Assembly: GCA_038736825.1 (NCBI GenBank)
Contig: JAVYME010000019.1
Span: 1 to 23,602 of the forward strand
Length of the DNA: 23,602 bases
Reading direction: 5' to 3'
Source of the DNA: Candidatus Iainarchaeum sp.
GTDB taxonomy: Archaea > Iainarchaeota > Iainarchaeia > Iainarchaeales > DTGL01
This document shows positions 7,437 through 23,602 of this stretch, piece after piece. Both the position numbers and the translations under genes were made by a program. The notes under the pieces were generated by a model, which saw nothing but the letters and a program-made list of their open reading frames with translations, made no database searches and was not told the origin of the DNA. Position 1 is the first letter of the stretch, and each line of letters begins with the position of its first letter.

Positions 7437-7445
7437 GGATTCTAG

Positions 7446-7494
7446 AAAAAAAAACCAATTGCCCCGAAAGGGGCTTCACTTTTTTTATTTTTTT
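7446..7494 (+). terminator. A-tract / GC hairpin / T-tract intrinsic-terminator-like element
   Basis: An A9 run (7446-7454) precedes the hairpin GCCCC-GAAA-GGGGC (7461-7474), which is followed by TTCAC, T6, A and T7 (to 7494). The element starts 10 nt after the stop at 7434-7436. Confidence 0.55.
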
Positions 7495-7549
7495 AAAAAG
7501 TCGGCGGTTAGGATAGCTTTATTTGGTTTTGGTTGTTTTTAGTGATATT

Positions 7550-8863: not shown

Positions 8864-8869
8864 GGGACA

Positions 8870-10666
8870 ATGGAATTGCAAAAAGGTTTTTTTATGCGCT
8901 CAAAAATTTTATTATTGTTTTTTTTGCTTTCCATGCTTTTCAATGCATACGCTGCAACTTGGTTTAGCGGAAACATTAAGGTTAACAGCCAAAACGCGCC
9001 CATTGGAACCACTCTTGAAGGAATAATTGAAGGCATTGTGGACGGAAGCACCACAATTGAAACCGCTGGCACATACACGTTAATGGTGACAAACGACACT
9101 TGGGCAAACTACATTACATTCAAAATGAAAACCCCGCAAATGCAAACCCCTGTTGAAAAAACAATTCTCTTCGATCCCGAGATTGACCTTCCGGAAGGCT
9201 TTGGCACAGAAGACGAACCATACATTTTAGATTTAGAGTTTGAAGCCGAACTGCCAACACCAACACCCACGCCAACACCCACGCCAACCCCGACACCCAC
9301 TAGCACGCCAACAACCCCAACCGGGCCAACTGGACCCAGCGGGCCAAGTGGTGGCCCCAGTGGTGGCGGAACCGGAGGCGGCGGCGCTACTCCAACTCCT
9401 ACAACGCCCACGCCAACCCCTTCCTTGAAAAAAGAAACAGTTTTGGATGAAACCCAAAAATATCTGCCAAGCCCTGAAGAAATTGAAGAAACCCTGGTTT
9501 TGGCTGGAATAACTGATCCTAAAGAAATTGAAAAAATCATAGAGCAAATGGATCATATTTTGATTGTAAAAACCATTAAAGTTGAAAAAACCACTAATCC
9601 GGTTACCGGAGAAGAATCCTTTCAAAGCATTATAACCATTTCAATCAAGAACACTGGCAGGACTGCTTTTGAAAACATCACTTTCTATGAACTGGTTCCA
9701 AAATCAATTGTAAGGGATGCAAGCCTGATTTCTTCAAGCCAGCCATTCAATATAGAGGAAAAAGGCGATTTTTGGATTATAAAATGGCATTATGATTCGC
9801 TTATGCCTGGAAAAACAACAAAGTTTTCTTACACTCTACCCTTAAACGCTGGAACCACAATATTGAACAACAGCAAGTCCCTTTTCTCTGGAACAGAAAA
9901 AGAGGCTCCGCCAAGCCAGTTATTTGGAAAAATAATTGTAAGGGTTTTATTCAATGGAAGGCCACAGCAAGGCATAGTGGTTTGGCTGGAAAAAGACGGC
10001 ACTAGAGAAGCACAAAACGCTACAAGCGCCCAAGGAATAGTGGAATTCATTTCATTGCCTCCAGGCAACTATTTTGTTTCAACAAATGAAACCTCACAGT
10101 TTTATGCTGCAAGCATGAGAGTGGTTCTAAGTGAAGGGGAAACAAGAGAGGTTGCATTAAGCCTTTCAGCAAAAACCATTCCAACACAAAAACCGCAAGA
10201 GGCTGTAATTCCAGGGTTTTGGCTGCTAGTGCTATTTGCAATCATAGCATTAATCATAATATTGTTCTTTTTCAGGGAAAAACTCTTTGGAGAAGAAAAG
10301 AAAGAAGTAGTTGCCACGCCAGCGAAAAAAACAGAGCCAAAAAGACCGTTCAAAAAGGAAAAGAAAGAACCACCAATTGAAAAGCCGGTTCCAGCCCAAG
10401 TTGTTGAAGAGAAAAAACCAGAGCCAGTGAAAAAAGAAGAACCAAAAAAGCCAGAGCCAACCGCAGAGCCCGTGAAAAAGGAAGAACCTAAAAGGCCGTT
10501 CCAAAAAATCAAAGAAGAAAAAATGGCTGCTGCCTTAAAACCAGAGCCTAAAGAGGAAAAACCGCCAGAAGAGCCAAGCACATACAAGTGTGATGAGTGC
10601 GGTGAAGAATTCCATACAAGGATTGCATTGCGTGCCCATAAAAGGCGCCACCAGCACACAAAATAA
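8870..10666 (+). CDS. type I surface protein with cytoplasmic Lys/Glu/Pro-rich tail and C-terminal C2H2 zinc finger
   Basis: ATG 8870 (alternative ATG 8894). Signal peptide ...MRSKILLLFFLLSMLFNAYA. The N-terminal domain is paralogous to the upstream gene. A PT/G linker spans 9251-9424. ISIKNTGRTAFENITFYELVPK is a CARDB-like module. GKIIVRVLFNGRPQQGIVVWLEKDG...PPGNYFVS resembles a carboxypeptidase-regulatory fold. The TM helix is 10208-10273, followed by a KEP-rich tail and YKCDECGEEFHTRIALRAHKRRH (10583-10651). Confidence 0.8.
   Translation: MELQKGFFMRSKILLLFFLLSMLFNAYAATWFSGNIKVNSQNAPIGTTLEGIIEGIVDGSTTIETAGTYTLMVTNDTWANYITFKMKTPQMQTPVEKTILFDPEIDLPEGFGTEDEPYILDLEFEAELPTPTPTPTPTPTPTPTSTPTTPTGPTGPSGPSGGPSGGGTGGGGATPTPTTPTPTPSLKKETVLDETQKYLPSPEEIEETLVLAGITDPKEIEKIIEQMDHILIVKTIKVEKTTNPVTGEESFQSIITISIKNTGRTAFENITFYELVPKSIVRDASLISSSQPFNIEEKGDFWIIKWHYDSLMPGKTTKFSYTLPLNAGTTILNNSKSLFSGTEKEAPPSQLFGKIIVRVLFNGRPQQGIVVWLEKDGTREAQNATSAQGIVEFISLPPGNYFVSTNETSQFYAASMRVVLSEGETREVALSLSAKTIPTQKPQEAVIPGFWLLVLFAIIALIIILFFFREKLFGEEKKEVVATPAKKTEPKRPFKKEKKEPPIEKPVPAQVVEEKKPEPVKKEEPKKPEPTAEPVKKEEPKRPFQKIKEEKMAAALKPEPKEEKPPEEPSTYKCDECGEEFHTRIALRAHKRRHQHTK
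9251..9424 (+). repeat. imperfect CCNACN hexanucleotide (PT) plus Gly-rich linker coding repeat
   Basis: Encodes LPTPTPTPTPTPTPTSTPTTPTGPTGPSGPSGGPSGGGTGGGGATPTPTTPTPTPS. It generates shadow ORFs on both strands. Confidence 0.8.
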
Positions 10667-10768
10667 TGCTTTGAACACTTTTTGCACTGTTTTAGCCTGA
10701 AAATGGAAAAATTAATAAAGGAGTATTGGATAATCTATACTGTTTCCTGATTGGATTTGGTGTTAGAA

Positions 10769-12268
10769 ATGGTTGGAGAGGAAAAGGAAAAACAGCCTTA
10801 TGGTTACGAGGTTTATGAAGAATATGAATGGAAGGCTTTTGCAAAAAAAATAGCAAAATATTTGCTCATACTTGTAGTTATTTTGGCAATAGGCTGGCTT
10901 ATTTATGACTATTTTGTGGGCTCTTATGTGCCTGTCACAATAATAGTGCAAGACCTTGAAAAAAAGCCCATTACAGACAACACCATTTATGTGACAAACG
11001 AAAAAACTGGCGCTTCACATTTTGAAAAAAGCGGGCAATCCACTTACAATTTCACGCTCAAGCGCGGGCTTTTCGGGGCAACAGAAAACTATGTTGTAAG
11101 GGTTGAAGCCGACAAATTCAAAGCACAACAGGCAATACTGCCAGTTGGAACAGAAAAGTTATCGCAAAATATTTCGCTTGAAAGGGACATTGATGTCAAA
11201 ATCATTGACGTGGAAATACCAAAACAGCTCTTTGGAGGCCAAACCTTTACAATGACTGCCACTATTGAAAACCGCGGTTCAAGTGGTGAAAAAATAGATT
11301 TGGGTTTCAGCAAGGACTTTGAGGAATGGAGTTGCGCTCCAGTGGACAAAGAAATCTTCATTCAGGCGAAAACCAAGTCTGAGTTTGACATTCAGTGCAC
11401 TGTGCCTCCCACTGCAACCAAATCGATTTCCTCCAAGGGCGTGGAAAAAGAAGCCGCTGTTTACGTCAGGCTCACAAAACAGCAGTGGACTGGCAAATTC
11501 CAGCTTTATCCAATGCCTGCGTTTTCGCCGGCTGCAAGACTGGATTTTTCAAGCATGGATCCAATAAAAAGCCCTAAAAAAAAGATGGATTTCACTTTAA
11601 AAAATTCCAGCAGGTTTCCGATTTACGACATTCAATTGAAAATAGAAATAATTTCTGCTGAAAAAAACAAGCCTGAAGACATCAAAAAATGGGTTTATTT
11701 TGTGAATGCGCCTGAAGAGGACAAGACAAAAATCACAGTGCCGGCTATACGCGAGTCTGAAAGCTTTATTGTGCCTGTAGAGGTTTCGCTTCCAGTGAGC
11801 GCTCTCCCTGAAAAAATCACTGGGCGCATAGTGATAGAGGCACCATTCCTTACAGCTCCAATGAATTCCACGCTTTCCATTGAAATAACAAAGGCAGCCC
11901 AGGCAACCATAAGACTGGGCTATTACCCGCAATCGGTTTCAATAGAATTCAAGGACGGCAGTCCAGAAAAACGGCAAATAAGCATTGACGTGGAAAATTC
12001 AGGCGATTTGGACATATCAAACCTCAACATAAGAGTGAAAAACACTGATGTTTGCACAGAAAACTGGCTTTACTTCACTGACACTGGATTTATAACAAAA
12101 CTGGCTGCAAAGGGAAAAAAACAGGTTTATTTGACTGCCACTGCTCCGAAAACAGCAAAGGTTGACGATTATGCGCCCTGCCTTTTAATGGCATCCTATC
12201 CTCACCCCATAACCGGTTCAATGATGGAAGAAGACTTGGGATTAATACAGGTTAAAAGGTCCAGGTGA
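10769..12268 (+). CDS. N-terminally anchored (type II) envelope protein with CARDB/NEW3-like beta-sandwich repeats
   Basis: ATG 10769 is preceded by GGTG (10759-10762). A charged cytoplasmic N-terminus leads into TM helix YLLILVVILAIGWLIYDYFV. Beta-rich modules follow, with recurring patterns (TMTATIENRGSSGEKIDLGF; FTLKNSSRFPIYDIQLKIEI; ISIDVENSGDLDISNLNIRVKN) typical of CARDB/NEW3/COG1470-type S-layer-like proteins. Confidence 0.8.
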   Translation: MVGEEKEKQPYGYEVYEEYEWKAFAKKIAKYLLILVVILAIGWLIYDYFVGSYVPVTIIVQDLEKKPITDNTIYVTNEKTGASHFEKSGQSTYNFTLKRGLFGATENYVVRVEADKFKAQQAILPVGTEKLSQNISLERDIDVKIIDVEIPKQLFGGQTFTMTATIENRGSSGEKIDLGFSKDFEEWSCAPVDKEIFIQAKTKSEFDIQCTVPPTATKSISSKGVEKEAAVYVRLTKQQWTGKFQLYPMPAFSPAARLDFSSMDPIKSPKKKMDFTLKNSSRFPIYDIQLKIEIISAEKNKPEDIKKWVYFVNAPEEDKTKITVPAIRESESFIVPVEVSLPVSALPEKITGRIVIEAPFLTAPMNSTLSIEITKAAQATIRLGYYPQSVSIEFKDGSPEKRQISIDVENSGDLDISNLNIRVKNTDVCTENWLYFTDTGFITKLAAKGKKQVYLTATAPKTAKVDDYAPCLLMASYPHPITGSMMEEDLGLIQVKRSR

Positions 12269-13029
12269 AAACAGTGACAGAACCAGTTGTTGAATTCGTG
12301 GAATACAAGAAAATGGATTTGTCGGGTTACACTTTAATAGAGGGCTTTCCAGGGTTAGGGCTTGTTGGCACAATCGGCGTCAAATACTTGATTGAAAGAA
12401 TGAAGTTTGAACAGTTAGGCCACATTGAAACCAATTTTTTCATTCCAATAATAAGCATTAGAAACGGACTGCCAGTGTACCCTTCAAGGATTTTCGTGCA
12501 CCGCGGAAAAAAACTTGTAGCCATAATTTCAGAGCAAATAATTCCAAAAATGATGGTAAGGCATGTTGCAAAGGCAATAGTGAAATGGATTGAAAAAAAA
12601 GGCATAAAACAGGTTATTTCACTGGAAGGCATCAGGTCCAAGGGCGAGTTCTTGAAAACAGAAACAGTTTACGGAATAGCTGATTCCGAGGCAGCCAAAG
12701 AATTGTTGAAAAAGCACAATGTGACAATTGTAATGGACGGCATTACCACTGGAGTGACTGCACTCATATTGCTGGAATTATCTCAAAACGACAAAATAAG
12801 CAGTTGCTCTTTGCTTGGAAACGTCCAGATTGCTGCAGACTATGAGGCAGCAGCTGAATGCTTAAAGCGCCTTAACGAAATCCTTAACTTGAACCTCAGC
12901 ATTGAACCATTGCTTCAAGAGGCAAAGGAAACCAAAAAAGCCTTAATGAAGCAATTGGAAGGATTGAAAAAAACAAGTGAAACCGTGAAAAAGCTTGAGG
13001 AAAGCGGGGCAATGCCCATGTACACTTGA
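12265..13029 (+). CDS. PAC2-family proteasome assembly chaperone/activator (PbaA/PbaB-like)
   Basis: The GTG start overlaps the upstream stop (GTGA). The family motif IEGFPGLGLVGTIGVKYLIE sits about 25 aa from the N-terminus. The C-terminal region looks coiled-coil and the last three residues are M-Y-T (HbYX-type). An alternative ATG lies at 12313. Confidence 0.8.
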   Translation: MKTVTEPVVEFVEYKKMDLSGYTLIEGFPGLGLVGTIGVKYLIERMKFEQLGHIETNFFIPIISIRNGLPVYPSRIFVHRGKKLVAIISEQIIPKMMVRHVAKAIVKWIEKKGIKQVISLEGIRSKGEFLKTETVYGIADSEAAKELLKKHNVTIVMDGITTGVTALILLELSQNDKISSCSLLGNVQIAADYEAAAECLKRLNEILNLNLSIEPLLQEAKETKKALMKQLEGLKKTSETVKKLEESGAMPMYT

Positions 13030-13034
13030 ACCCT

Positions 13035-13052
13035 AAAAAAAGCGCTTTTTTT
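13035..13052. terminator. bidirectional terminator-like palindrome A7-GCGC-T7
   Basis: AAAAAAAGCGCTTTTTTT is a perfect palindrome that fills the 22-nt gap between the convergent PAC2 and ribH genes. It gives a T7 run on either strand. Confidence 0.5.
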
Positions 13053-13459
13053 CAAATTTTTAATTTTGCCATTTTCACTGCTGCTTCAACAGCGTGCTCT
13101 GAATAAGGTTTCAGTCTTTGCATTGCCTGTTTTTTTGAAACCCTTGGCCCTATTATTCCAGAGCAAACCGGTTTTTCAAATTCAATGCTTAAGTCGGCGA
13201 TTTTCCTGAAAGCGTTTCCTGCAACCATTACATCGTGTTCTGTTCCTCCCCTTAACACAATTCCCAAAACAACTATTGCATCGGCTTGTTTTTTTTCAAG
13301 GATTTTTTTTACGGCAAGCGGTGCTTCAAAAGCGCCTGGAACCCTGGCAACAAGGGAAACTTGCACTCCAAGGCTTTCAGCCTTTTTTTTTGCAAAAAAA
13401 AGCATTTTTTCAGCCATTTCTTTGTGGAAGTCGGCTAAAACTATTGCAATGGAAACCAT
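13052..13459 (-). CDS. ribH: 6,7-dimethyl-8-ribityllumazine synthase
   Basis: The 135-aa protein contains IAIVLADFH...VPGAFEAPLAVKKILEK...DAIVVLGIVLRGGTEHD...AFRKIADLSIEF.KPV..GI.GP...AVEAAVKMAKL. From memory it is collinear with the Methanocaldococcus jannaschii lumazine synthase. Confidence 0.9.
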   Translation of the reverse strand: MVSIAIVLADFHKEMAEKMLFFAKKKAESLGVQVSLVARVPGAFEAPLAVKKILEKKQADAIVVLGIVLRGGTEHDVMVAGNAFRKIADLSIEFEKPVCSGIIGPRVSKKQAMQRLKPYSEHAVEAAVKMAKLKI

Positions 13460-13472
13460 TTATGTCAACCCT

Positions 13473-13952
13473 TTATTTTACTGGCAAGAGTTTGGCGTTT
13501 TTTGAGCCCTGTCTTTGCCCTGTTCCGGCTCTTTCAACAAGGCTTTGAGGGTTAAAGAGCAAGTCTAGCGCGTTCAAGGAATGCTTTTCAACGCGGTCCT
13601 TTAAGATTTTTGCAAGCTCGCTGTCTTTTTTTGACTCGCAAGAGTGCACGAACACTTTTAAAATGTGCTTGCCGCTCAAAAGCTCTGCAATTATTAAGCC
13701 GATTCCTGCCTCCATTGCGCACCTTTCGTCAACTTCTGCCTCTCCAACAAAACCAAGCGCTATTATTATATCACAGTTTTTTTCTTCAAAGAGCTTTTTG
13801 CTGGCAATTGCCAAATCCTTTATTCCTGGAACAGTGTAACGCTCTATTTCAACCTTATAGCCTTTTGCCTTGCATTCCCTGTTAATTGTTTCAATTGCAA
13901 TTTTTCCCATGTTTGCTCGCGCAAACATTGTGTCCGCAATTCCAATCCTCAT
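13473..13952 (-). CDS. ribC: archaeal-type riboflavin synthase
   Basis: From ATG 13952 the protein reads MRIGIADTMFARANMGKIAIE...YTVPGIKDLAIASKKLFEE..CDIIIALG...HILKVFVH...GTGQRQG. From memory this matches the pentameric archaeal riboflavin synthase family (M. jannaschii MJ1184). The start overlaps the ribK stop by 1 nt (TGATG). The ORF-track start at 13982 adds 10 residues outside the family. Confidence 0.9.
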   Translation of the reverse strand: MRIGIADTMFARANMGKIAIETINRECKAKGYKVEIERYTVPGIKDLAIASKKLFEEKNCDIIIALGFVGEAEVDERCAMEAGIGLIIAELLSGKHILKVFVHSCESKKDSELAKILKDRVEKHSLNALDLLFNPQSLVERAGTGQRQGSKNAKLLPVK

Positions 13953-14365
13953 CAAACCACCTTTTTTTCTGTTTTTTTCCAAGCTGAAATTTCCACTGCA
14001 TCGCCGTCCTTGAGTTCAAATTTTTCCCTTAATTTGACTGGCGCAATTATTTCAATTATGTTGCAGGGATGGCTTGTTTTTGCAGGCCTGATTATTGCTG
14101 CATTCAAGCCCTTAAATGAAATCCTGTAAACCTTCAAGCAGCCAAAAACCTTTCCGTCCTTTTCAAAGGAATCCACTTTTTCTTCTTTTAAGGCTTGCAA
14201 GAATTCTTGCAATAATTGTTCTTCAACTTCAATGTTTAGTGTTCCACTGAACGGCTTGAAGCCAAGCAAGCGTTCAAGCCTTTCAAGGTATTCTGGCATG
14301 GAAAGGAACAAGCAGCCTTTTTCCAAACCGCTTCTCACAATTCCCTTGAGAGCAATGTCTGCCAT
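13952..14365 (-). CDS. ribK: CTP-dependent riboflavin kinase (archaeal RibK)
   Basis: From ATG 14365 the protein reads MADIALKGIVRSGLEKGCLFLSMPEYLERLERLLGFKPFSGTLNIEV...IIEIIAPVKLREKFELKDGDAVEI. This matches the MJ0056-type riboflavin kinase (GxVxSGxGxG..F, PYxGTLN, EIIAP.kLR). The upstream 22 codons of the track ORF look spurious. Confidence 0.88.
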   Translation of the reverse strand: MADIALKGIVRSGLEKGCLFLSMPEYLERLERLLGFKPFSGTLNIEVEEQLLQEFLQALKEEKVDSFEKDGKVFGCLKVYRISFKGLNAAIIRPAKTSHPCNIIEIIAPVKLREKFELKDGDAVEISAWKKTEKKVV

Positions 14366-14495
14366 AAAAAACAAAAGGCTGGGGGAAGAATTTAAAACCA
14401 ATACCTTGCAAAAAAACTCCCTTGCACTCAAAGAAAGGTTTTTATTTAGGTGAAGGAGTTAATTACTTACTGTCAAAAAATGGAGGTTGAAATTA

Positions 14496-14722: not shown

Positions 14723-15763
14723 ATGCCTTCTGTTAAGGCAAAAGCCAGGGTTTTTCCAAAAAACCCCGGCTTTTCAAGAAGAAAAAGGACAGTGCCTCAA
14801 AACCAAGAGGCACTCGACCTTAGAAGCAAGCAGCCAAGGAAAATATTGGTAGGCGAGCCCATAGAAATAGTGCACCAAGACCGTGTAAGCGCTGACAGAC
14901 CAATGTCTGTTTTAACTGCAGAGCAAATGGAAAACATTCGCAGGGAAATGCCAAAGGCTGTAGAGTATGCTAACAAGAAACCAGAGCAGGCAACTGCTTT
15001 TTTCAACAAGTTTAAAGATGAAGAAATAAGGCGGGCAAGGCTGGCTGAAATAAACCAGCGAATCACTGCTGTTTTTTCGAGTGTGCCATGGCAGCCCCAG
15101 CTTACAAATCCAAGCCCTCACCATCGCGATTCAAGGCTAAAAACCCCTGCAAATCTTTACGAAGACTACATGAAAGCCTTTGCAATGGAAAAAGCCGTTC
15201 TTGAAAGAAGCCTTGCAGAACAATCTGAGGCAATTCCTGAAAAAAGGAAAGCGTTAAGAAGACAGTTAAGGCACAATCTCTTGAATCCTTTCAGGCTATT
15301 GAATCCATTCAAGTGGAGTGATTTTTTCAAGCAATACCGGGAATACAGGTATCTTAAAAAAAGCCATAAAGCAAACCTTAAAGGCGCACCAGCATACCAT
15401 AAAGCAATAGAAAAAGCGCAAAAAGAATTATCGCTTTTGTTCAATAAAATCCAGGCAGAGGACTGGGAGCACAAGGCAACAGAGGCAACAGTGCGAAAGG
15501 CAGAGGAATACAGGGCAGAATTCATGAGAATAGTGAACGAATTTTATAAGGCAAGAGAGGAATTCGGTTATCAAAACCTTGGAAGGGGTTATGCGAAAAA
15601 AATGGCGCGAAAAGCTGAAAGAATGCAAATCGGCACCACTGCTGAACTGCGCAAGACTGCAGAGCAGTCACTTCTTCGCGAGAGAAAGCCATTGTTTTTA
15701 AAAAGAAAAAAGAAAAGCGCGCCAGAGGAAAGCCTTGAAGCGGAAAGCGAAAGCCCAGAATAA
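14723..15763 (+). CDS. basic, helix/coiled-coil-rich protein, unknown function
   Basis: ATG start 8 nt after the upstream stop; 346 aa. The N-terminus is basic and contains LDLRSKQPRKILVGEPIEIVH, paralogous to the motif in the upstream small ORF. The rest is rich in K/R/E/A. No TM helix or signal peptide. The tail is acidic (ESLEAESESPE). Confidence 0.7.
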   Translation: MPSVKAKARVFPKNPGFSRRKRTVPQNQEALDLRSKQPRKILVGEPIEIVHQDRVSADRPMSVLTAEQMENIRREMPKAVEYANKKPEQATAFFNKFKDEEIRRARLAEINQRITAVFSSVPWQPQLTNPSPHHRDSRLKTPANLYEDYMKAFAMEKAVLERSLAEQSEAIPEKRKALRRQLRHNLLNPFRLLNPFKWSDFFKQYREYRYLKKSHKANLKGAPAYHKAIEKAQKELSLLFNKIQAEDWEHKATEATVRKAEEYRAEFMRIVNEFYKAREEFGYQNLGRGYAKKMARKAERMQIGTTAELRKTAEQSLLRERKPLFLKRKKKSAPEESLEAESESPE

Positions 15764-15774
15764 AAATGATGCAC

Positions 15775-18700
15775 TCATTTTTGCACTAATTTTTTCCTTT
15801 TGTACACCAAAAAGTGGATTGCCAGAGTGATTCCAAAAACAGAAAACACTATTGCTGGAAGCTCTTGAGGCCAAGAGGGCAAATTGAACAAGCCGCCATC
15901 GCTTGCACCAGTGGAAATGTTCATTATATTGTTTCCAGGCGTGGTTACAACTTGTCCGTTTGCTCCCACTTGTGTTAGGGCTCCGTTTTTGAAGGCTTCA
16001 AGCAATGGCAGCAACTGGGCGTTTTCTGCATTCCAAGTGTTTTTTTCTGTGTCATACCAGAAGGAACCGTTTCTGCCTTGCGCCATGGTTAATGGTTCCG
16101 GAGGGTAATTGTTGTAGGTTACCATTGGAATTCCGTTTTTTGCATCAATTCCAAGGTTGTGAGATTTTCCGTCCTCGGTTTTTATTTTTATTCCGTCTGG
16201 TGTTACAGTCATGCTTTCAATTGGAGCATCATATATTTCGCCTGTTTGCTTGTCTATTACCCTGAAATAGTCTTTGCATGTGCCGTCTGGTTCAAGCTTT
16301 GAATAGAATATGAATCTCCTTGTAGGGGTTTCCAGTATTGTGAAGGGTCCAACGTTTTGCAGGGCTTCATTGAAGGCATTAACCTTAAAAGCGGTTGTGC
16401 TGCTCTTGTCGGATGGCAAAACTTCAAGGTTGACTGCTGGCTCTGGGCAGTCTGTGAGCGGGTTTCTTGAAGTGGCTGGCTTTAGTTTTACGCCTGCAAC
16501 ATCATCTGAAGACAACTGCCCGAGCTCGTGCCGTTTCAGCCATACAAGCAATTCATGCGTGTCAGGCTTGTAGAGTATTACTCCGTTCTTGAATTGAATG
16601 GATTTAAAAAGCCCGACAAACATGTTTTGGTCAGGACGCCACAAATAAGTGTTCCTGTCTGCATGAATCCTGGCTTTTGCCTCACTGCCCTCCATTATCA
16701 GCCTGGGAGTGCCTTCTGCAACAATCCTTTTATCTTCAGGCCAAGCCATGATTGATGGATGGGAGTCTGTTACAATTGTTTCCACTTTTCCAAATATTGG
16801 GGTTAAATTGAAGGATGTGGCGCTGTCGCTTTTTGCATCCAATCCTGACTGGAATTTTATTCCTTGCAATAAGCATTCTATAACCGAGGGGATTTTGACT
16901 GTGAGCTCGCCATCAGTGTCCATTTCAAACAATAGTTCTGCAGACTTTGGCAGTCCTATGAGTGTGAACCGTTTTCCGAATTCTTCTGCTGGAATCCTGG
17001 TGTTGGTGGAGGCACTCCTTGTTGCAAGCTCGTTTTCAGTTATTGTTTGAAGGAGTTGCCCGTTTTCGTCAACCACATAAACTTTTCCAGTGTTGAAGTC
17101 AACTATTACAAACCTGTTGCCGTCCTGCGAGGCAATCTTTTTTATGCCTTCGGTTTTGTATTCCAAGGGCGAGGTTTCGCCCTTGTACCAGAAGGAAAAC
17201 AATTGTTCGCCTGAAAGCTTGCCTGAAGAAAACCCAGGGATTTCCACTGTTGCTTGCACTATGTCTGACTGGCTTGCGCCTTCAAAAAAGTCTTTTACTT
17301 GGCGGTCCAAGGCTTCTGCTGCCTTGGAAGTGTAAGAGTTTGTGTCAGACTTGAACATTCCAATCAGTTGTCCTGAAAACTTTTCAGCCATATCCATTGC
17401 TTTTTCTGTTGAAAGCGCTTCACTGCTTTCCGTGCCCTTTTTTTCCTCTTTGGATGGAGCAAATATGTGCGTGTAATAGCCTTCATCGACGTCAACACAG
17501 TCTTGGAGTTGTGATGCAACCACCACTTGTTGGAAGACTGAACCGAAAATTCCAGCCCAAAACGCTGTCATGTAGAGAGCGCTCTCCCCGAAAGCCAGAA
17601 CTCCGCCTATAGCGCTTGGTTTCAAAACACTGTCTTTCGAGAAAGCGCCTGTTGCCCTTCCCAAGCCAAACAAGGCTTCTTGGGCTTTGTCTTGACAGGT
17701 TTGCTTTTTCGCTATTGCTGTTTTCAGGTTTATTTCCCCGCTTGTAGAAGCACCGCTTTCCTTTCCTTGAAGGTTGGTGTGATGGGCAAAGGTTATAAGG
17801 GTGTTGCCTTTCTTTTTGGCGGCTTCAGAGACTGCATCCTCTATCATGTAGGACTTAAAGCGGTCGCTAGCGTAAAAAAATGCTGAAAAGGACTGGAAAT
17901 TGTTTGAAGTGTCAAGGCTTACACCACAACCACTGCACTCGTTTTGGGTTGTGCCATAAAACGCTATGTTTTCCACTTCGTTCCGTATATTGCCGCCTGT
18001 AAAGTTTTCATACAATTTTTTTGCTGGAGCATAGTTTTCTATGAGTTGTCCTGCAATGAACTCCCAGGGCATTGCGCTTACAACCCTGCGGAACATGTCG
18101 CCCTGGTCTGAGCCTTCGTGAGAGAAAAAGTCTATGAAGGCATCATTGTAAATCGGGTCTGAACCCAAAGGCCACCTGATTTCACGCCAGGAATCTGGCA
18201 GCATGTAGGCGGAAATGCCTTCTTGTCCAAAGCCTCTTTTTGCAAACCAGTAAGTGTTCAACAAGGCAGTCCACTTGAATGGACCGGTTTTTGAGCCAAA
18301 ATAATTCTTTAAAAGCTCGTCTTGGTTCATTAGTGCTCTGTCCAAAAGGCTGGTGTAATTGCGTTTCATGAAGCCTTTTGCCTGCAAGCCGTAAACCAGT
18401 TTGTCTGCATTATCCGGGCCATACCAGGTTAGCATTGATTCAAGCCTGCGATTGTTCACAAGCCTTTGAGCGAATTCTTCCGGGCTTAACTCTTTGGCTT
18501 TAGTGATTGCTCCAGCATACATTGGTTTTTGTCCTGTCATCACTTTTGAAACATATGGCAGGGTTGCATCCTTTACCGGCATTACTTCGCCTGGATCGGT
18601 TTTCACAAAAATGTCAGTGAACTGGGAAAAATGCGTTTTTAAGTCGTCTGCGGTGACTTTTGCGATTTCTGTTGCACTTGGATCAAAAGCGTAAAGGTTG

Positions 18701-20412
18701 AGGTTTTTGCCAGCGTTTTCAAAAGAGAACTGGGTTGGCCACATTCCGCCCCAGTGCCCGTCTGCTTCAAACTTTTTCATTACATTGTAAATGTCTATTG
18801 AGTCTGAGGCAAGCCATCTTGTTGCGTCAGAGCCTTGCGGTTTTACTCCATAATAGAAAAGCCTTGCGGAACCATCTCTTGAAAACCATTCCGGAATGTC
18901 TAAGTGAATCATGTCTTCAGAGGAAGTCATTATTTTGCTTATTTTTTGCCCGAAATCAATTCTTGCAGCAACCTCTGAAGGGTGCCCCAAGCCATAAGCT
19001 TTGAGTGCCTGCATGTAGGGTTCTTTTGCATCATTGTACACTGCGCGCTGGATTTTTTGCCATTTCCTTACATCTTCAGCGAACTGGTACATTTCTTTTT
19101 GCACGCGTCCTTCGCTTATTTGGTCAAACCAGCCTCCCGTGTTCATCCATTCCTTTTCAAGCTTGTTTCTGAACTCCCTGCTTTTCAGCAATAACATGCC
19201 GTCCTGCCATCCCTGGGTTTCCATTAATTCAAAGCGAAGCCTTCCAACGTCCGGAATGCCTTCAGCGCGAGCCCACATTCTTCTTCCAAGGCGTTCATAG
19301 TAGGCTGTGCCTGGACCCATAAACCTTCTCCTGATTGCATCCATTATTTTTTCGTCAAACACTTTTTTGATTTTCGGGAAAAAGCCTCTCCTGCCAATGT
19401 TCATGAAGAGTTTTTTTGCCCTGCTTATCAGGGTTGGCGCGGCATTGCTTATCACCATTTCTGTGGAAAACCAGTTGTTGTAGTATTTGTCAAACAAAGA
19501 GTAAACATTGATTATGCAATCTGAAGTGTTGCATGTGGTTTGAGAGTAAGCATTGAAAGTGCTTGCCAGAATGGAGTTTGGAATCATTTCCTTTACAAGC
19601 CTTGACATTGTCTGCACTCTTGTTTCGTTGAGGTCGCTTGAGGCAGCCAGTTCTTTTAATTCTTGCGAGGAGTTTTCAGGCAAGCCTAATGCTTTTCTCA
19701 TGCCCTCATAGTCTTCATCCGTCCAGTCAGACTGCTCTTTTTCCGTCCAATTATAGTCTTTGCCTGTAAGGCCGCCGGCAATTGTTTCACCTGCACTCAC
19801 TGCAGCGCCTTTTATTTTTTGGCCTATTTCTCCAAAGAATTCCTTTATGGGCTTGAAATCGCTTACAAAACCGGTTCCAGAGTTCCTCAAACTCAATTGT
19901 TTTCCTTCCATTGGACAGGGAATGTTTTGGTCCTTTAAGTCAGTACACCTGCCAACCCTGAGAGTGTCTGTCAAAACAAGACCGTAAGAATATGGCCCGC
20001 TGATGTGGTCATTGAAAATGTGTTGGGCTTCATTGGCGTCAAATTTTTGGTCAGCCATTTCCACTTTTCTGGCTGTGTTTTTGTCGTCTCCCAGCGGAAT
20101 AACTACTGTTGGGTTTGCCAGTTTGTCTCTTGCAGTGTTTTCTGGACTGCCACTACTGTATTCTGAGCCCAAAAAGCCGTCCCTTAAAAGGTCCAAAAAC
20201 CTTTGCGAGTCTTCATCGCTCATGGACGGGTTTGCGCAAGTGAATTGCCCGCCTCTTTCCTCCATTGCCTGTAAAGGGGTTTTTTTTGTTTCTCCAAGGC
20301 TTTCACTGGCTTCAGCTGCGTAAACCAGGTGAGAGTTCAATAAAAGGGCTACAAGGATTGCTGCAAGGAATTGTTTTTTTTCCAGCCAGCAATTCAAGCA
20401 AAACACCGTCAT
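15775..20412 (-). CDS. giant (1545 aa) secreted, C-terminally membrane-anchored protein of unknown function
   Basis: ATG start. Sec-type signal peptide MTVFCLNCWLEKKQFLAAILVALLLNSHLVYA/AE. The C-terminal TM helix PAIVFSVFGITLAIHFLVY is followed by KRKKLVQK. An internal hydrophobic stretch sits at about aa 933-969. I recognise no catalytic or repeat motifs. The frame is long and uninterrupted, and only short shadow ORFs lie opposite. Confidence 0.85.
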   Translation of the reverse strand: MTVFCLNCWLEKKQFLAAILVALLLNSHLVYAAEASESLGETKKTPLQAMEERGGQFTCANPSMSDEDSQRFLDLLRDGFLGSEYSSGSPENTARDKLANPTVVIPLGDDKNTARKVEMADQKFDANEAQHIFNDHISGPYSYGLVLTDTLRVGRCTDLKDQNIPCPMEGKQLSLRNSGTGFVSDFKPIKEFFGEIGQKIKGAAVSAGETIAGGLTGKDYNWTEKEQSDWTDEDYEGMRKALGLPENSSQELKELAASSDLNETRVQTMSRLVKEMIPNSILASTFNAYSQTTCNTSDCIINVYSLFDKYYNNWFSTEMVISNAAPTLISRAKKLFMNIGRRGFFPKIKKVFDEKIMDAIRRRFMGPGTAYYERLGRRMWARAEGIPDVGRLRFELMETQGWQDGMLLLKSREFRNKLEKEWMNTGGWFDQISEGRVQKEMYQFAEDVRKWQKIQRAVYNDAKEPYMQALKAYGLGHPSEVAARIDFGQKISKIMTSSEDMIHLDIPEWFSRDGSARLFYYGVKPQGSDATRWLASDSIDIYNVMKKFEADGHWGGMWPTQFSFENAGKNLNLYAFDPSATEIAKVTADDLKTHFSQFTDIFVKTDPGEVMPVKDATLPYVSKVMTGQKPMYAGAITKAKELSPEEFAQRLVNNRRLESMLTWYGPDNADKLVYGLQAKGFMKRNYTSLLDRALMNQDELLKNYFGSKTGPFKWTALLNTYWFAKRGFGQEGISAYMLPDSWREIRWPLGSDPIYNDAFIDFFSHEGSDQGDMFRRVVSAMPWEFIAGQLIENYAPAKKLYENFTGGNIRNEVENIAFYGTTQNECSGCGVSLDTSNNFQSFSAFFYASDRFKSYMIEDAVSEAAKKKGNTLITFAHHTNLQGKESGASTSGEINLKTAIAKKQTCQDKAQEALFGLGRATGAFSKDSVLKPSAIGGVLAFGESALYMTAFWAGIFGSVFQQVVVASQLQDCVDVDEGYYTHIFAPSKEEKKGTESSEALSTEKAMDMAEKFSGQLIGMFKSDTNSYTSKAAEALDRQVKDFFEGASQSDIVQATVEIPGFSSGKLSGEQLFSFWYKGETSPLEYKTEGIKKIASQDGNRFVIVDFNTGKVYVVDENGQLLQTITENELATRSASTNTRIPAEEFGKRFTLIGLPKSAELLFEMDTDGELTVKIPSVIECLLQGIKFQSGLDAKSDSATSFNLTPIFGKVETIVTDSHPSIMAWPEDKRIVAEGTPRLIMEGSEAKARIHADRNTYLWRPDQNMFVGLFKSIQFKNGVILYKPDTHELLVWLKRHELGQLSSDDVAGVKLKPATSRNPLTDCPEPAVNLEVLPSDKSSTTAFKVNAFNEALQNVGPFTILETPTRRFIFYSKLEPDGTCKDYFRVIDKQTGEIYDAPIESMTVTPDGIKIKTEDGKSHNLGIDAKNGIPMVTYNNYPPEPLTMAQGRNGSFWYDTEKNTWNAENAQLLPLLEAFKNGALTQVGANGQVVTTPGNNIMNISTGASDGGLFNLPSWPQELPAIVFSVFGITLAIHFLVYKRKKLVQK

Positions 20413-20427
20413 AGTTTTTTTTCAACC

Positions 20428-20970
20428 TCACGAGTAAAGGAAATAAAGCATTCCCTGGAAAACCCAGCCGAAAAGGAAAAGCAGCAAGGCGGATGCAAGC
20501 AAAGTGCAAGCGTAAACTGAAACAAAAAGGCAAAGGTATTTGTTGAATTTCTTTTTTTCAAGCCATTCTTTTGGAAAAGAGCCAAGCAAGACAAAAAAAA
20601 GGCAGACTCCTGTCAAAAAAATGCTGCCTGCCAAAACCCTGAAAATGGAAGTCAAAGCCAAAGCCATCCAGTCAGAGAAATCAGGCTGCAATTCTTCCGG
20701 TTTTTCGCCCAGGCTTTCAGCACCAAAACCGTACAATAAGGGATAAAAATAGACAGTAAAAACAAGCAAGAGAGAGAAAAAAAAGCAGACAATTGCTGCT
20801 GCAAAAAACCATGAAATCTTGAATTTGGCGGTGAGCTTTTTATGCAATGCCCTTCCAGCCAGTGCAGTGAAAAAAAGCGGGATTGACAATACCAGGCTGC
20901 CTCGCAACAAATCCACCACCGTAAAGGCAACATCAAGCACTGAAGCCAAAACCACCGCCATAACAACCAA
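20428..20970 (-). CDS. small polytopic (about 5 TM) membrane protein, unknown function
   Basis: TTG at 20970 or ATG at 20961. About five hydrophobic helices are separated by short charged loops (HKKLTAKFK; GEKPEELQPDFSD; PKEWLEKKKFNK). The stop lies 15 nt upstream of the giant ORF start on the same strand. Confidence 0.7.
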   Translation of the reverse strand: MVVMAVVLASVLDVAFTVVDLLRGSLVLSIPLFFTALAGRALHKKLTAKFKISWFFAAAIVCFFFSLLLVFTVYFYPLLYGFGAESLGEKPEELQPDFSDWMALALTSIFRVLAGSIFLTGVCLFFVLLGSFPKEWLEKKKFNKYLCLFVSVYACTLLASALLLFLFGWVFQGMLYFLYS

Positions 20971-21045
20971 CTAACGCTAAAAATATACCTGTAACCCATA
21001 TATATAACTTAATGTAACATATTAAGTGTTTTGGATTGGTGCCAT

Positions 21046-21861
21046 ATGTACACTCCAGAAAATGTGCCGCGGAGAATGATGCGCTTTTACAGGGACGACG
21101 GAACCCGCCTTGTAAAACACCTCTCAAAACAGATTGAAAAAGCCAGCGGCATAAAAGAGGTTGAAAAACAAAAAATAATAATAAGCCTTAAGCGAAGGCT
21201 TGAAGAACTCGAAGAAAACGAAAAAAAAGACTTGGCTGTGCACTTGTTCGAGCAAGCAAGCAGTGGAAAAGACGAAACAAAAGAAGTGGTGTTCAAAGAG
21301 GTAATGAAATACCAGGGCAGACAACAGGAACTGTCAAGCAAGGAAGCCGACGAAATAGCGGACAGCATTTACTCTCAACTCAAAGAAAGAGAGGAATCAC
21401 ACAAAATCCTCTCCAGGCTTGAGGAAAAAAAGAAAAAAGAACAAGAAAAAAGCGAAAAAGAAAAAGAAAAAAAACTGCGCGAAGCAGAAAAAAAGCTGCC
21501 GCGCTCTGAAAGGCGTGAAATAAGGGAAGCTGGGCCGTTTGCAATCCCAGAACCTGAAAAAACAAGAAAAATTGACACTGCCTCGGAAGTGGACAAAATA
21601 AAAAAAGAATTATCCCAGGGGCTTGACAAAAAAGAAGAAAGCCCGGAAGAAGAAGAGGATGATTTCAGTGACATCAAAAAAGAACTGGGAATGGATGATG
21701 AAAAGGAAGAGGAAGACTCCACCTTTGAAGAACTGGAAAAACTCAGCGAAGAAAAAGAAGAAAGCCTTTCAGTTGAAAGCGATGAAGATTCAGAAGAAGA
21801 CTTCAGCATGGAGGGCTTTAAAACCGAATTCGAAGAAGAAAAGAAAAAGAAAAAAAAATAA
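21046..21861 (+). CDS. hyper-charged Glu/Lys-rich protein with acidic tail, unknown function
   Basis: ATG 21046 (the track's TTG 21031 is less likely). The first roughly 110 aa are non-repetitive (MYTPENVPRRMMRFYRDDGTRLVKHLSKQIEK...). An EK-rich segment follows, then an acidic tail (EEEEDDFSD...ESDEDSEEDFSMEGF...) ending in KKKKKK. The antisense Ser-rich ORF is a shadow. Confidence 0.65.
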   Translation: MYTPENVPRRMMRFYRDDGTRLVKHLSKQIEKASGIKEVEKQKIIISLKRRLEELEENEKKDLAVHLFEQASSGKDETKEVVFKEVMKYQGRQQELSSKEADEIADSIYSQLKEREESHKILSRLEEKKKKEQEKSEKEKEKKLREAEKKLPRSERREIREAGPFAIPEPEKTRKIDTASEVDKIKKELSQGLDKKEESPEEEEDDFSDIKKELGMDDEKEEEDSTFEELEKLSEEKEESLSVESDEDSEEDFSMEGFKTEFEEEKKKKKK

Positions 21862-21865
21862 AACT

Positions 21866-22675
21866 TTACTGGGCCAGATAACAATTCAAGTCATCATTTG
21901 GATCCAAATCGTGAAAAATCAGTTTTTCATCCAGCTTTAGGGAAGGCCAGAGCCTTAACTCTGTGAAAAGCTTTTCCTCCTTGTAAATCCACTTTCCGCT
22001 CTCCCAATCCCCATACCTGAAATGCAATGCCACAGGCTGAGCCCTTATTGAACTGCCAGTCTGGGACAAAAACTCTTCCTCGATAAAAGACTCAGAACCC
22101 TTTTCAGGATAACAAAAAAAATACCTTATTGCAAAATTGCCCGGCGAAACCTCTTGATTGTATTTCAACACAACCATTGCAAAAGACGAAACATCCTTTG
22201 ATTCAAAGGGAAGCGTGCGCATTGAAAAAAGAAAATCATAGTTTGAAAGAGCTGAAGCCATTATGGTGTTCAAATCCTTGAGAACCAGTTTTTTGGATTC
22301 AAGGCTGAAACCGCGGTGGTTGGCATAATCCTCCTTCAAAAAAGCAAGAAGGTAATCCACTTCCTTTGTGTCCGCAAGCCTTTCCCCATGCTTTCTGGGA
22401 GTGCTGGAATAAAGCAGTGTTTGAACCGCAGAAGTAGCAAAATCGGTTCCATAAAACTCCAAGGCAATCCTTTCAACCGAAGAACCATACGCATTGGTTT
22501 TCACCAGCATCAGCCTTCCACTGCCCGGCACATCAATGCCCACATCCGTTTTAACAGTGGAACCAGTAATGAAAAAAAACATGAGGGCTGCAAGGCAGGA
22601 ACAGATAACCAAAAGAAAAATTGCATCCGCAAGAGCCGCTTGAGCCCTTTCACTGTGCTTCAACCCTAAAACCAT
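21866..22675 (-). CDS. type IV pilin-like protein (class III signal peptide-like N-terminus)
   Basis: ATG start. The N-terminus MVLGLKHSERA/QAALADAIFLLVICSCLAALMFFFI is a short basic region, an [KR]-[GA] site, Q at +1, then about 25 hydrophobic residues. The remaining roughly 230 aa look soluble. It overlaps the upstream gene by 10 nt. Confidence 0.7.
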   Translation of the reverse strand: MVLGLKHSERAQAALADAIFLLVICSCLAALMFFFITGSTVKTDVGIDVPGSGRLMLVKTNAYGSSVERIALEFYGTDFATSAVQTLLYSSTPRKHGERLADTKEVDYLLAFLKEDYANHRGFSLESKKLVLKDLNTIMASALSNYDFLFSMRTLPFESKDVSSFAMVVLKYNQEVSPGNFAIRYFFCYPEKGSESFIEEEFLSQTGSSIRAQPVALHFRYGDWESGKWIYKEEKLFTELRLWPSLKLDEKLIFHDLDPNDDLNCYLAQ

Positions 22676-23223
22676 ACAACCACCACTAAAAGCATTGGCC
22701 TTACAGCAAAACCGCTCTTTATGTTTGCAGAATTGTCCTGGAATGCGACAGGGAACATTTTAACTATTGCCTGGCTGCCTGGCTTCATGTGCTCAAAATT
22801 TCCAGGACAGACAACATGTTCAAGTTCTCCGGTTTCAGGGTTTGTTGTAATATAAACCCCTTGATTGCTGTCAACAAAATCCCTTAACTCTATCATTTCA
22901 AAGGGCGCGCCCTCTTGTCTTAACTCTATCAAGCCTGCCTTGAAATTCACGCCTGGCACGCTCACCTTTTCACACAATTCCTTGAATTCCTGCAAGTCGT
23001 TTATGTACTTGTCGCCCCGCATTTGATCGCTTATTTTAAGGATTTTTATTGCCCTGTCAAAACGAGTGTTGCCCTTGTCAAAAACCGAAAAGGTTGCAGT
23101 AAAGGCAGTGAAAAAAACAACCAGTGAAAAAATTATTGGAATCAGGCTTGGAAGGTCGTCGCCTATTGGTCCAATAAAACCGCGGTTTTTGTTTTTTTTT
23201 CTCCAAAAAACCTTCATTTTCAT
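22666..23223 (-). CDS. N-terminally anchored, possibly pilin-like protein
   Basis: ATG 23223 overlaps the upstream stop by 1 nt (TGATG). The N-terminus is MKMKVFWRKKNKNRG/FIGPIGDDLPSLIPIIFSLVVFFTAFTATF. It has a single hydrophobic helix and then a soluble domain ending in the beta-like RPMLLVVVVWF. The track start at 23238 is also possible. Confidence 0.6.
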   Translation of the reverse strand: MKMKVFWRKKNKNRGFIGPIGDDLPSLIPIIFSLVVFFTAFTATFSVFDKGNTRFDRAIKILKISDQMRGDKYINDLQEFKELCEKVSVPGVNFKAGLIELRQEGAPFEMIELRDFVDSNQGVYITTNPETGELEHVVCPGNFEHMKPGSQAIVKMFPVAFQDNSANIKSGFAVRPMLLVVVVWF

Positions 23224-23602
23224 CACACCGGCGGACATGTTGCCATGTCGGCAAGTATTCCTGAACAGTCTGTTGGAGTGTCAGTGCAACGGCTTTTAAA
23301 ACCTCTTTCTTTTTGGATAAGGCAGGCAATCCTGCCGGTTTTTTCCTTGCAGTCATCGCGGTTGGCTGAAGTGCAGGGCACAAGGAAGACATTGTTGAAA
23401 CCGCTTGCTGTTTCTTTCAACACTACCACTGTATCTATTGGAATTGGGCCCAAGCCAAAGCCCAAAACCAGTGAATCTGACTCGCAGAGTTTTCCGTCCT
23501 CGTCAAGTGAAAAAATGCGAAAAGAGGCTTTTTGCTCTCTGCGCTGGCTTGCAGTTATTTTTGGAGCTCTTCCCCTGTTCACTGCAGACTTGTACTCGTC
23601 AC
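23223..23602 (-). CDS. 3' part of a Cys-containing hypothetical protein (5' end outside window)
   Basis: The reading frame stays open from the listed GTG (23582) to the window edge (...DEYKSAVNRGRAPK...), so the gene probably starts beyond 23602. The visible part has 6 Cys. It is translationally coupled to the next gene. Confidence 0.5.
   Translation of the reverse strand, partial: DEYKSAVNRGRAPKITASQRREQKASFRIFSLDEDGKLCESDSLVLGFGLGPIPIDTVVVLKETASGFNNVFLVPCTSANRDDCKEKTGRIACLIQKERGFKSRCTDTPTDCSGILADMATCPPV

Follow-up and report, generated by a model that had tools for sequence, protein, structure and literature searches.

The DNA analyzed here, hereafter the window, is a stretch of 23,602 nucleotides (nt) of contig JAVYME010000019.1 from an assembly of Candidatus (Ca.) Iainarchaeum sp. 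(GCA_038736825.1). It contains two adjacent genes, one encoding a small polytopic membrane protein (termed 5TM) and the other an anchored ectoprotein of 1545 amino acids (aa), termed the giant. Both had been noticed in a reading of the sequence alone (the original prediction) as co-oriented genes separated by 15 nt, and we confirmed the two open reading frames (ORFs) and the spacer (20413-20427). We found that the two genes constitute a genuine orphan module, present throughout the phylum and located within the pilus gene block of Iainarchaeota. The genes and their terminal and upstream features are listed below.

15775..20412, minus strand: gene for the giant ectoprotein (ORF of 1545 aa; mature protein of ~169 kDa, isoelectric point (pI) 5.5)
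20428..20970, minus strand: gene for 5TM, which opens the pair (small polytopic membrane protein; ORF)
20317..20412, minus strand: Sec-type signal peptide of the giant, aa 1-32, predicted cleavage at VYA/AE (sequence and hydropathy)
15778..15861, minus strand: C-terminal transmembrane anchor of the giant (aa ~1518-1537) and basic cytoplasmic tail KRKKLVQK (sequence and hydropathy)
20979..21007, minus strand: TATA-like AT-rich boxes TTATATATAT and GTATATTTTT, located by eye 18-46 nt upstream of the 5TM start

The 5TM ORF has 180 codons when counted from the TTG at 20970, which is the length originally proposed; the ATG at 20961 is the likelier start and gives a 177-aa protein identical to the NCBI protein QXK06_04000. 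Its polytopic character stands, with about 4-6 hydrophobic segments according to hydropathy. The TATA-like boxes fall in the 60-nt divergent intergenic region upstream of 5TM and are presumed to be the promoter of a 5TM-giant operon. Because this stretch precedes 5TM and there is no space for a promoter between the two genes, they probably constitute a single operon.

The termini of the giant are as first described, including the clean signal peptide (..LLNSHLVYA/AE), the C-terminal transmembrane helix, and the KRKK sequence: the protein begins with MTVFCLNCWLEKKQFLAAILVALLLNSHLVYA/AE and ends with ...NLPSWPQE-LPAIVFSVFGITLAIHFLVY-KRKKLVQK. Hydropathy analysis revealed only two strong hydrophobic segments, the signal peptide and the C-terminal helix, and the family-average peak in the signal region (aa 5-38) reaches 1.99. 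This signal peptide is not of class III, being a 32-aa Sec type that ends in VYA/AE. The giant is identical to a hypothetical protein of a metagenome-assembled genome labeled Candidatus Diapherotrites archaeon, and its ORF is kept full-length, with 30-82% identity, in more than 80 other loci.

Conservation of the giant is even over the full length, with variable stretches only near aa 31-60, 181-240, and 901-930. Over 68 non-identical full-length giant sequences, 75 positions are conserved at 97% or more, many of them Asp, Glu, His, Arg, Lys, Ser, Tyr, or Cys. This set includes most positions of the motifs YSLFDKYYNNW, HEGSDQGDMF, and CVDVDEGYYTH. Twelve Cys are invariant or nearly so: C59, C156, C166, C826, C829, C906, C972, C1180, C1322, and C1379 are at or above the 97% level, and C294 and C299 are near-invariant, being kept in most sequences. 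We predicted the structure of the giant with AlphaFold2 as two overlapping tiles, using a 28-sequence alignment. Tile A (aa 40-1000) has a mean predicted local distance difference test score (pLDDT) of 65.7 with a confident, mostly helical block at aa ~360-680, and tile B (aa 690-1545) has a mean pLDDT of 73.4. The following regions were delimited.

19393..20238, minus strand: N-terminal conserved Cys-containing region, aa 59-340 (alignment; AlphaFold2 confidence low)
18373..19335, minus strand: aromatic-rich helical domain with a small beta insert, aa ~360-680 (AlphaFold2 tile A, pLDDT 80-94)
17713..18345, minus strand: most conserved alpha/beta core, aa ~690-900 (alignment; AlphaFold2 pLDDT 60-80)
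17506..17619, minus strand: predicted Gly/Phe-rich hydrophobic helical hairpin, aa 932-969 (IGGVLAFGESALYMTAFWAGIFGSVFQQVVVASQL; hydropathy and AlphaFold2)
15937..17256, minus strand: predicted beta-rich C-terminal ectodomain of ~40 strands, aa ~1053-1492 (AlphaFold2 tile B)
15862..15885, minus strand: juxtamembrane motif N-L-P-S-[LW]-P-x-E, aa 1510-1517 (P1512 and P1515 at 97% or more in the 68 sequences)

The N-terminal region carries C59, C156, C166, C294, and C299 together with the motifs GPYSFGLVLTDTLRVGRC, LRNSGTG, and YSLFDKYYNNWFS, and contains a variable helical insert at aa ~181-260. A W/Y/F-rich helical center had been proposed, and this description holds in part: the W/Y/F content of aa 300-800 is 12-19% and aa ~360-680 are modeled as helical, but aa ~690-900 are modeled as mixed alpha/beta. 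The helical domain may represent a new fold. In the alpha/beta core, the motifs SAYMLPDxWRExRWPLGS and YNDAFIDFFxHEGSDQGDMF are found along with an invariant C826-x-G-C829. The hairpin has a hydropathy of 1.36-1.41 in the window protein (family average 1.0-1.4), contains the conserved residues E943 and Q962, and was modeled as two helices with a pLDDT of ~50-60; it is followed by the invariant C972-V-D-V-D-E-G-Y-Y-T-H. The last ~500 aa had been described as beta-rich and were indeed modeled as almost pure beta, with a pLDDT above 90 for aa ~1079-1479. The NLPSLPE motif before the anchor is nearly invariant across the family, and no motif of this type was found before the transmembrane anchors of the other surface proteins of the window. 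Acidic motifs of the D-x-D-x-G and G-S-D-x-G-D kinds are present in the ectodomain. N-glycosylation sequons number 9 per 1545 aa versus ~10 estimated from composition, and range from 2 to 20 in homologues. A motif scan found no HExxH, P-loop, or PT/ST runs, and a profile self-comparison found no internal repeats (best off-diagonal probability of 1.5%), in line with the initial by-eye description.

In order to place the two proteins in known families, we searched by sequence and by fold, and the initial view that no domain is recognizable was borne out. Neither the giant nor 5TM matched Pfam, NCBIfam, or PHROGs, and Pfam over 27 giant homologues at E ≤ 1 and over 7 distant relatives returned only noise, with nothing recurrent in the homologues. 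The S-layer models (Pfam S_layer_N/S_layer_C and DUF1608; NCBIfam TIGR01564/TIGR01567) do not match the giant of the window, nor do the S-layer Pfam models match the 27 homologues or the 7 distant relatives. Likewise, hidden Markov model (HMM) and fold searches gave no signal for PilY1, DUF2341, vWA, or Ig-fold domains in the giant, and PilY1 was found neither at E ≤ 10 in the PDB profile search nor in the best 50 of 860 Foldseek matches. With a single sequence and with a 27-sequence profile, the sole PDB sequence match was a borderline one (18.5 bits, E 0.0026) between the helical domain and the poxvirus protein OPG079 (9wgb); the alignment begins in His-tag residues, so we treated this match as due to chance and rejected the kinship.

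In fold comparisons with Foldseek at E ≤ 0.001, neither PDB nor BFVD yielded a match for tile A. For tile B, the best 50 of 860 PDB matches at E ≤ 10 are only generic WD40, YWTD, NHL, and tricorn propellers with probabilities of at most 0.84, and these superpose poorly (template modeling score of at most 0.17, root-mean-square deviation of 15-25 Å). Because of this very poor superposition we do not call the C-terminal region a propeller, and record the modeled region as beta-rich, with propeller-like local geometry and fold not assigned. No description of the giant/5TM family was found in the literature searched.

The giant family is restricted to Iainarchaeota/Diapherotrites. A word-indexed search of 5.8 billion proteins retrieved 27-28 giant clusters of ~1500 aa, whose lineage labels, where present, are Diapherotrites; a repeat of this search with the giant profile added one fragment. 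HMMER against 1.84 billion representatives (50% identity clusters) returned 207 sequences at E ≤ 0.001, of which 114 at E ≤ 1e-30, and those distant relatives that bear a lineage label are also Diapherotrites. When one genome per GTDB species was scanned, relatives of the giant were found in 114 genomes, with one locus each. For the best 80 of these 114 genomes, lineage labels, where present, are Iainarchaeum/Diapherotrites save two labeled Micrarchaeota; Ca. Iainarchaeum andersonii, Ca. Forterrea, and the complete AR10 genome are among them. In the metagenome-assembled genome LFW-281_4 (loci L004 / L057, 1823-6745), the giant gene is split into two ORFs of 1389 aa and 242 aa, reflecting a frameshift, an assembly error, or a pseudogene.

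The small gene had been described as the dedicated partner of the giant, and this is what the relatives display. HMMs of the window proteins were searched against all ORFs of 87 loci, 75 of which contain a 5TM homologue; it lies directly upstream of the giant on the same strand in 70 of the 75 (median gap of 72 nt), and in the remaining 5 an inversion has placed it nearby on the opposite side. In all 12 loci without 5TM, the DNA ends within 191 nt upstream of the giant gene, and all 68 non-redundant loci having at least 600 nt upstream of the giant keep 5TM. Its profile retrieved 9 proteins in the word-indexed protein search, and any lineage label among these is Diapherotrites or archaeon. Given this pairing in all loci with upstream DNA and the confinement to the same lineage, 5TM is a dedicated partner of the giant.

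In the 75-sequence alignment of the 5TM family, W54 and G173 alone reach 85% conservation, and there is no conserved Cys, His, Arg, Asp, or Ser and no conserved polar or catalytic residue; 5TM is therefore probably structural rather than catalytic. One of the 9 retrieved proteins carries the automatic label "PerM permease", which no HMM backs. We rejected two candidate identities for 5TM. A prepilin peptidase (A24; PibD/FlaK, "5-TM form") is contradicted by the lack of a conserved Asp and of a Pfam match, and a sortase-like enzyme by the lack of a conserved catalytic residue and of any Pfam or NCBIfam match.

The genomic context of the pair recurs throughout the phylum in the order [T2SSE > T2SSF >] pilin-like operon > acidic protein < 5TM > GIANT > PAC2 < T2SSF_b < T2SSF_a < T2SSE. 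We counted context genes in the 37 non-redundant loci in which the giant is flanked by 5 kb or more on each side: pilin-like genes are found in 34, T2SSE/F genes in 34, either of these in all 37, and the PAC2 gene in 35. Even a distant relative of the giant (1355 aa, E 1e-45) retains the whole gene order, with a 172-aa polytopic protein standing in the place of 5TM. The initial proposal of a candidate undescribed envelope system is supported and sharpened. Two of its refuting conditions could be checked and did not apply, as no known family matches either protein and 5TM is conserved next to the giant; and rather than being merely near pilins, the pair lies inside a phylum-wide type IV filament supercluster. 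Besides the pair, three members of this block are present in the window.

21031..21861, plus strand: acidic Lys/Glu-rich cytoplasmic protein of 276 aa, divergent neighbor of the pair (position kept in 63 loci)
21866..23582, minus strand: tail end of the pilin-like operon, with products of 269, 190, and 119+ aa, cut by the window edge (operon kept in 52-54 loci)
12265..13029, plus strand: PAC2-family gene (Pfam PF09754, 9.6e-36; position kept in 67 loci)

The neighboring pilin-like operon, also noticed at the outset, is real, with class III signal peptides of the K/R-G-Q...E..LL type. Its products in the window have N-terminal transmembrane segments and class III signal-like motifs (..ERAQAALAD.., ..NRGFIGPIGDDLPSLIP..), and the complete operons of 6-8 genes in loci L001, L003, L005, and L087 display KGQ/RGQ-E-LL pilin signals. 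Examples of class III signal peptides among the small proteins of the operon are RKGQESAPFELLIAVIV and NQKGQAFATFRLLISAIV; a member of 44-70 aa may be the main subunit. Over 24 genomes, mean pairwise identity is 0.50 for PAC2, 0.44 for the ATPase, 0.37-0.38 for the platform proteins, 0.35 for the giant, 0.32-0.35 for the pilin-like proteins, and 0.27 for 5TM. According to these values, the giant changes at the pace of the pilus parts, unlike a fast-changing adhesin.

Several further observations were made on the block. PAC2, which resembles proteasome assembly chaperones, is in other genomes the last gene of a co-directional T2SSE > T2SSF > T2SSF > PAC2 string beside the giant, also seen in locus L087, and a PAC2-like protein is an unexpected fixed member of a pilus core operon. 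The T2SSE-type ATPases of the block carry N-terminal 4Fe-4S ferredoxin domains (Fer4 fused to T2SSE; L002, 1-975; L087, 14515-16041). Three protein families of these loci contain the sequence LPSLP next to a transmembrane helix: besides the giant, the 190-aa pilin-like family (22666-23238, minus strand, in the window) invariably has GPIGDDLPSLIPIIF where its N-terminal helix begins, and 2500-aa proteins upstream in loci L006/L009/L014 start with ..EKRGLPSLP followed by a transmembrane helix. This recurrence reflects either shared recognition or chance.

The remainder of the window is compatible with an archaeon (split transketolase, transaldolase, ribulose-phosphate epimerase) and also encodes several Ig-like surface proteins with C-terminal anchors. 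Where other genomes have the ATPase/platform genes, the window has four genes for surface proteins of 863, 446, 598, and 505 aa (4845-12268, plus strand), in which Ig-like, CARDB, or CarboxypepD_reg signals are present, and only the 505-aa protein has a counterpart at the same position (loci L001 and L002). The protein encoded at 8870-10666 (plus strand) has DUF11/CarboxypepD_reg-like domains and a transmembrane helix at aa 442-475, after which a long Lys/Glu/Pro-rich tail ends in a C2H2 zinc finger (PF13912, E 8.8e-6); an ectodomain joined to a cytoplasmic zinc finger is an odd combination. Between PAC2 and the giant (13052-14431, minus strand) are a gene for a CTP-dependent riboflavin kinase and two tandem lumazine-synthase-family genes, one of 135 aa with a full domain and one of 169 aa with a partial, weaker match. 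These riboflavin genes occupy the same place in locus L001, and the kinase alone does so in L003; they look like ordinary metabolism inserted into the block. Finally, a 346-aa highly basic, helical, non-membrane protein (14723-15763, plus strand) is encoded convergently with the giant, 11 nt separating the two stop codons. Locus L001 alone contains a counterpart, a weak one (26% identity), and because the protein turned up in no more than 3 loci, it does not belong to the conserved block.

From this context we tentatively propose that the pair is a lineage-specific envelope/adhesion accessory module of the archaeal type IV filament system of Iainarchaeota. The 5TM and giant genes would form a single operon encoding a membrane complex, in which 5TM is probably a structural partner and the giant is exported by the Sec pathway and held to the cytoplasmic membrane by its C-terminal helix. 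In the multi-domain ectodomain of ~1480 aa, the 12 Cys could form up to six disulfides. The pair would function in the envelope of the cell, surrounding the pilus or next to it, and would serve as a surface, adhesion, or receptor-binding component or else as a "collar" for passage through the envelope, a role likened to that of the large PilY-like, adhesin-like, or S-layer-like proteins of other archaeal pilus loci. This assignment of function rests on linkage and anatomy, and we regard it as possible rather than probable.

Several points weigh against this interpretation. Gene linkage is all that backs a role in the pilus, and the conserved order could partly reflect common descent, since the block also holds PAC2 and, here, riboflavin genes. 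In the window itself, the ATPase/platform string is missing beside PAC2. No similarity of the giant to PilY1, DUF2341, or Ig-fold adhesins could be detected, and its ordinary Sec signal, not of class III, implies that it is not itself a filament subunit. AlphaFold2 confidence is also low for aa 40-350 and 900-1050 of the giant.

The main alternative, which we consider unlikely, is that Iainarchaeota use the giant as their S-layer (main cell-envelope) protein, tethered by the C-terminal helix and anchored or assembled with the help of 5TM; adjacency to the pilus genes would then be incidental or would allow envelope and pilus to be coordinated. A signal peptide, a large acidic ectodomain, and a C-terminal transmembrane anchor, as combined in the giant (pI 5.5, 169 kDa), form a layout common in archaeal S-layer proteins. 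The occurrence of the giant at one locus in each of 114 species genomes agrees with such a role, no S-layer protein of Iainarchaeota is described in the literature searched, and S-layer-like proteins with a C-terminal transmembrane helix have been noted in archaeal pilus loci (PMC4858521). However, the giant matches no Pfam/NCBIfam S-layer family, about 600 aa of it are helical and aromatic-rich and no array of Ig-like domains was seen with AlphaFold2 or Foldseek, and its sequons are not enriched. Its 12 invariant or near-invariant Cys and many invariant polar motifs would also be atypical of S-layer proteins, in which sulfur amino acids are described as scarce (10.1101/2021.04.28.441871). The 75 positions conserved at 97% or more, which include many polar and Cys residues, the evenness of conservation from end to end, and a rate of change that is slow for a surface protein would suit a surface enzyme, acting for example on polysaccharide or on the envelope of another cell, with HEGSDQGD, DVDEGYYTH, NSGTG, and CxGC as active or metal sites. 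This seems very doubtful: neither HMM nor fold searches match the giant to an enzyme family, and PDB sequence matches to glycosidases appear only at E ≥ 0.2.

The original prediction also suggested host attachment or membrane manipulation, which is speculation. In another alternative, the giant would be a membrane-insertion or fusion-type contact device, whose hairpin (aa 932-969) enters the membrane of a partner while the C-terminal helix stays in its own, the pili bringing the cells together. A conserved hydrophobic hairpin within an otherwise soluble ectodomain, flanked by long helices, is compatible with this scheme, as are the C-terminal anchor, the linkage to pilus genes, and the occurrence of the pair in a DPANN lineage. 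However, the hairpin contains E943 and Q962 and is less hydrophobic than a typical transmembrane helix, so that it may be simply buried core; no known fusogen in PDB gave a fold match, the N-terminal tile has no match among viral models (BFVD), and a symbiotic or episymbiotic lifestyle is not established for Iainarchaeota. We thus judge such a device to be very unlikely. Least credible, in our view, is a sorting pair in which 5TM, as a sortase- or archaeosortase-like enzyme, cuts the giant at NLPSLPE to re-anchor or release it. The conserved tripartite C-terminus of the giant (motif, transmembrane helix, and basic tail) does resemble LPXTG, PEP-CTERM, and PGF-CTERM signals, and the 5TM and giant genes are linked one to one. 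Against this, no Cys, His, Arg, Asp, or Ser is conserved among the 5TM proteins, and no Pfam/NCBIfam model for sortases, archaeosortases, or CTERM signals matches either protein. As a general sorting signal, NLPSLPE was rejected given its absence from the other anchored surface proteins of the window.

Beyond the accessory module that we favor, a bolder and improbable extension is that the pair is the missing envelope-level component of the DPANN type IV filament machine, a membrane-anchored structure with folds not seen before, which would serve as a gate or guide for the passage of the pilus through the envelope, or else would engage the membrane of another cell via the hairpin after pilus-mediated contact. 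If true, it would represent a new class of archaeal cell-cell contact device. Envelope building and cell contact in DPANN archaea are largely unknown, and almost no proteins involved have been identified. Here, wherever a sampled locus extends far enough on either side, a protein of ~1500 aa and its partner occupy a fixed place in a pilus block. No protein of known function is related to either of them in sequence, and structural neighbors are likewise lacking for ~1000 aa of the giant. The giant family is a marker for Iainarchaeota and a specific target for metaproteomes and for labeling in cryo-electron tomography. Even if the giant were only the S-layer protein, no envelope protein would have been assigned for the phylum before it.

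Comparison with known systems places the pair among, and apart from, several kinds of surface proteins. Membrane-anchored archaeal S-layer proteins include SlaA/SlaB of Sulfolobales and the csg glycoprotein of Haloferax. The giant resembles these in size, signal peptide, acidic pI, membrane tether, and presence at one locus per sampled genome, but differs in having no family match, a helical third that is rich in aromatic residues, 12 invariant or near-invariant Cys, and sequons that are not enriched. In bacteria, PilY1 is an adhesin and mechanosensor associated with type IVa pili, and its C-terminal part is a beta-propeller. Like PilY1, the giant exceeds 1000 aa, is encoded near pilin genes (minor pilin genes in the case of PilY1), has a C-terminal region modeled as all-beta whose best structural neighbors, poor as they are, are propellers, and contains acidic motifs that could bind Ca. 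Unlike PilY1, it has no blade repeats and is membrane-held by its C-terminal helix; it therefore cannot ride on the pilus tip unless it is cleaved.

The closest parallel is with the archaeal type IV filament loci, which commonly encode large accessory proteins, whether PilY-like (DUF2341), Ig-fold "hook-like", or S-layer-like with a C-terminal transmembrane helix, for which roles in adhesion or in the crossing of the envelope by the filament have been proposed (PMC4858521; bioRxiv 10.64898/2026.04.22.720090). Such proteins include those of the DUF2341/PilY-like type in system 1 (Epd-type) loci and, in clade 4G loci, a large protein that has a C-terminal transmembrane helix (Makarova, Koonin & Albers 2016, PMC4858521; bioRxiv 10.64898/2026.04.22.720090). 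Two platform genes are found in system 1 and 4A loci, DPANN included (PMC4858521; bioRxiv 10.64898/2026.04.22.720090), and the Iainarchaeota block likewise has two per locus. In contrast to these accessory proteins, the giant gives no DUF2341, PilY1, vWA, or Ig-fold signal, its 320-aa helical domain has no structural neighbor, its family is confined to one phylum, and it has an obligatory small polytopic partner gene. Like them, the giant is a large anchored protein encoded between pilin and ATPase/platform genes, and it shares conserved cysteines with clade 4G components. Thus, not by homology but by position and topology, the pair fits the kind of accessory protein encoded in archaeal filament loci.

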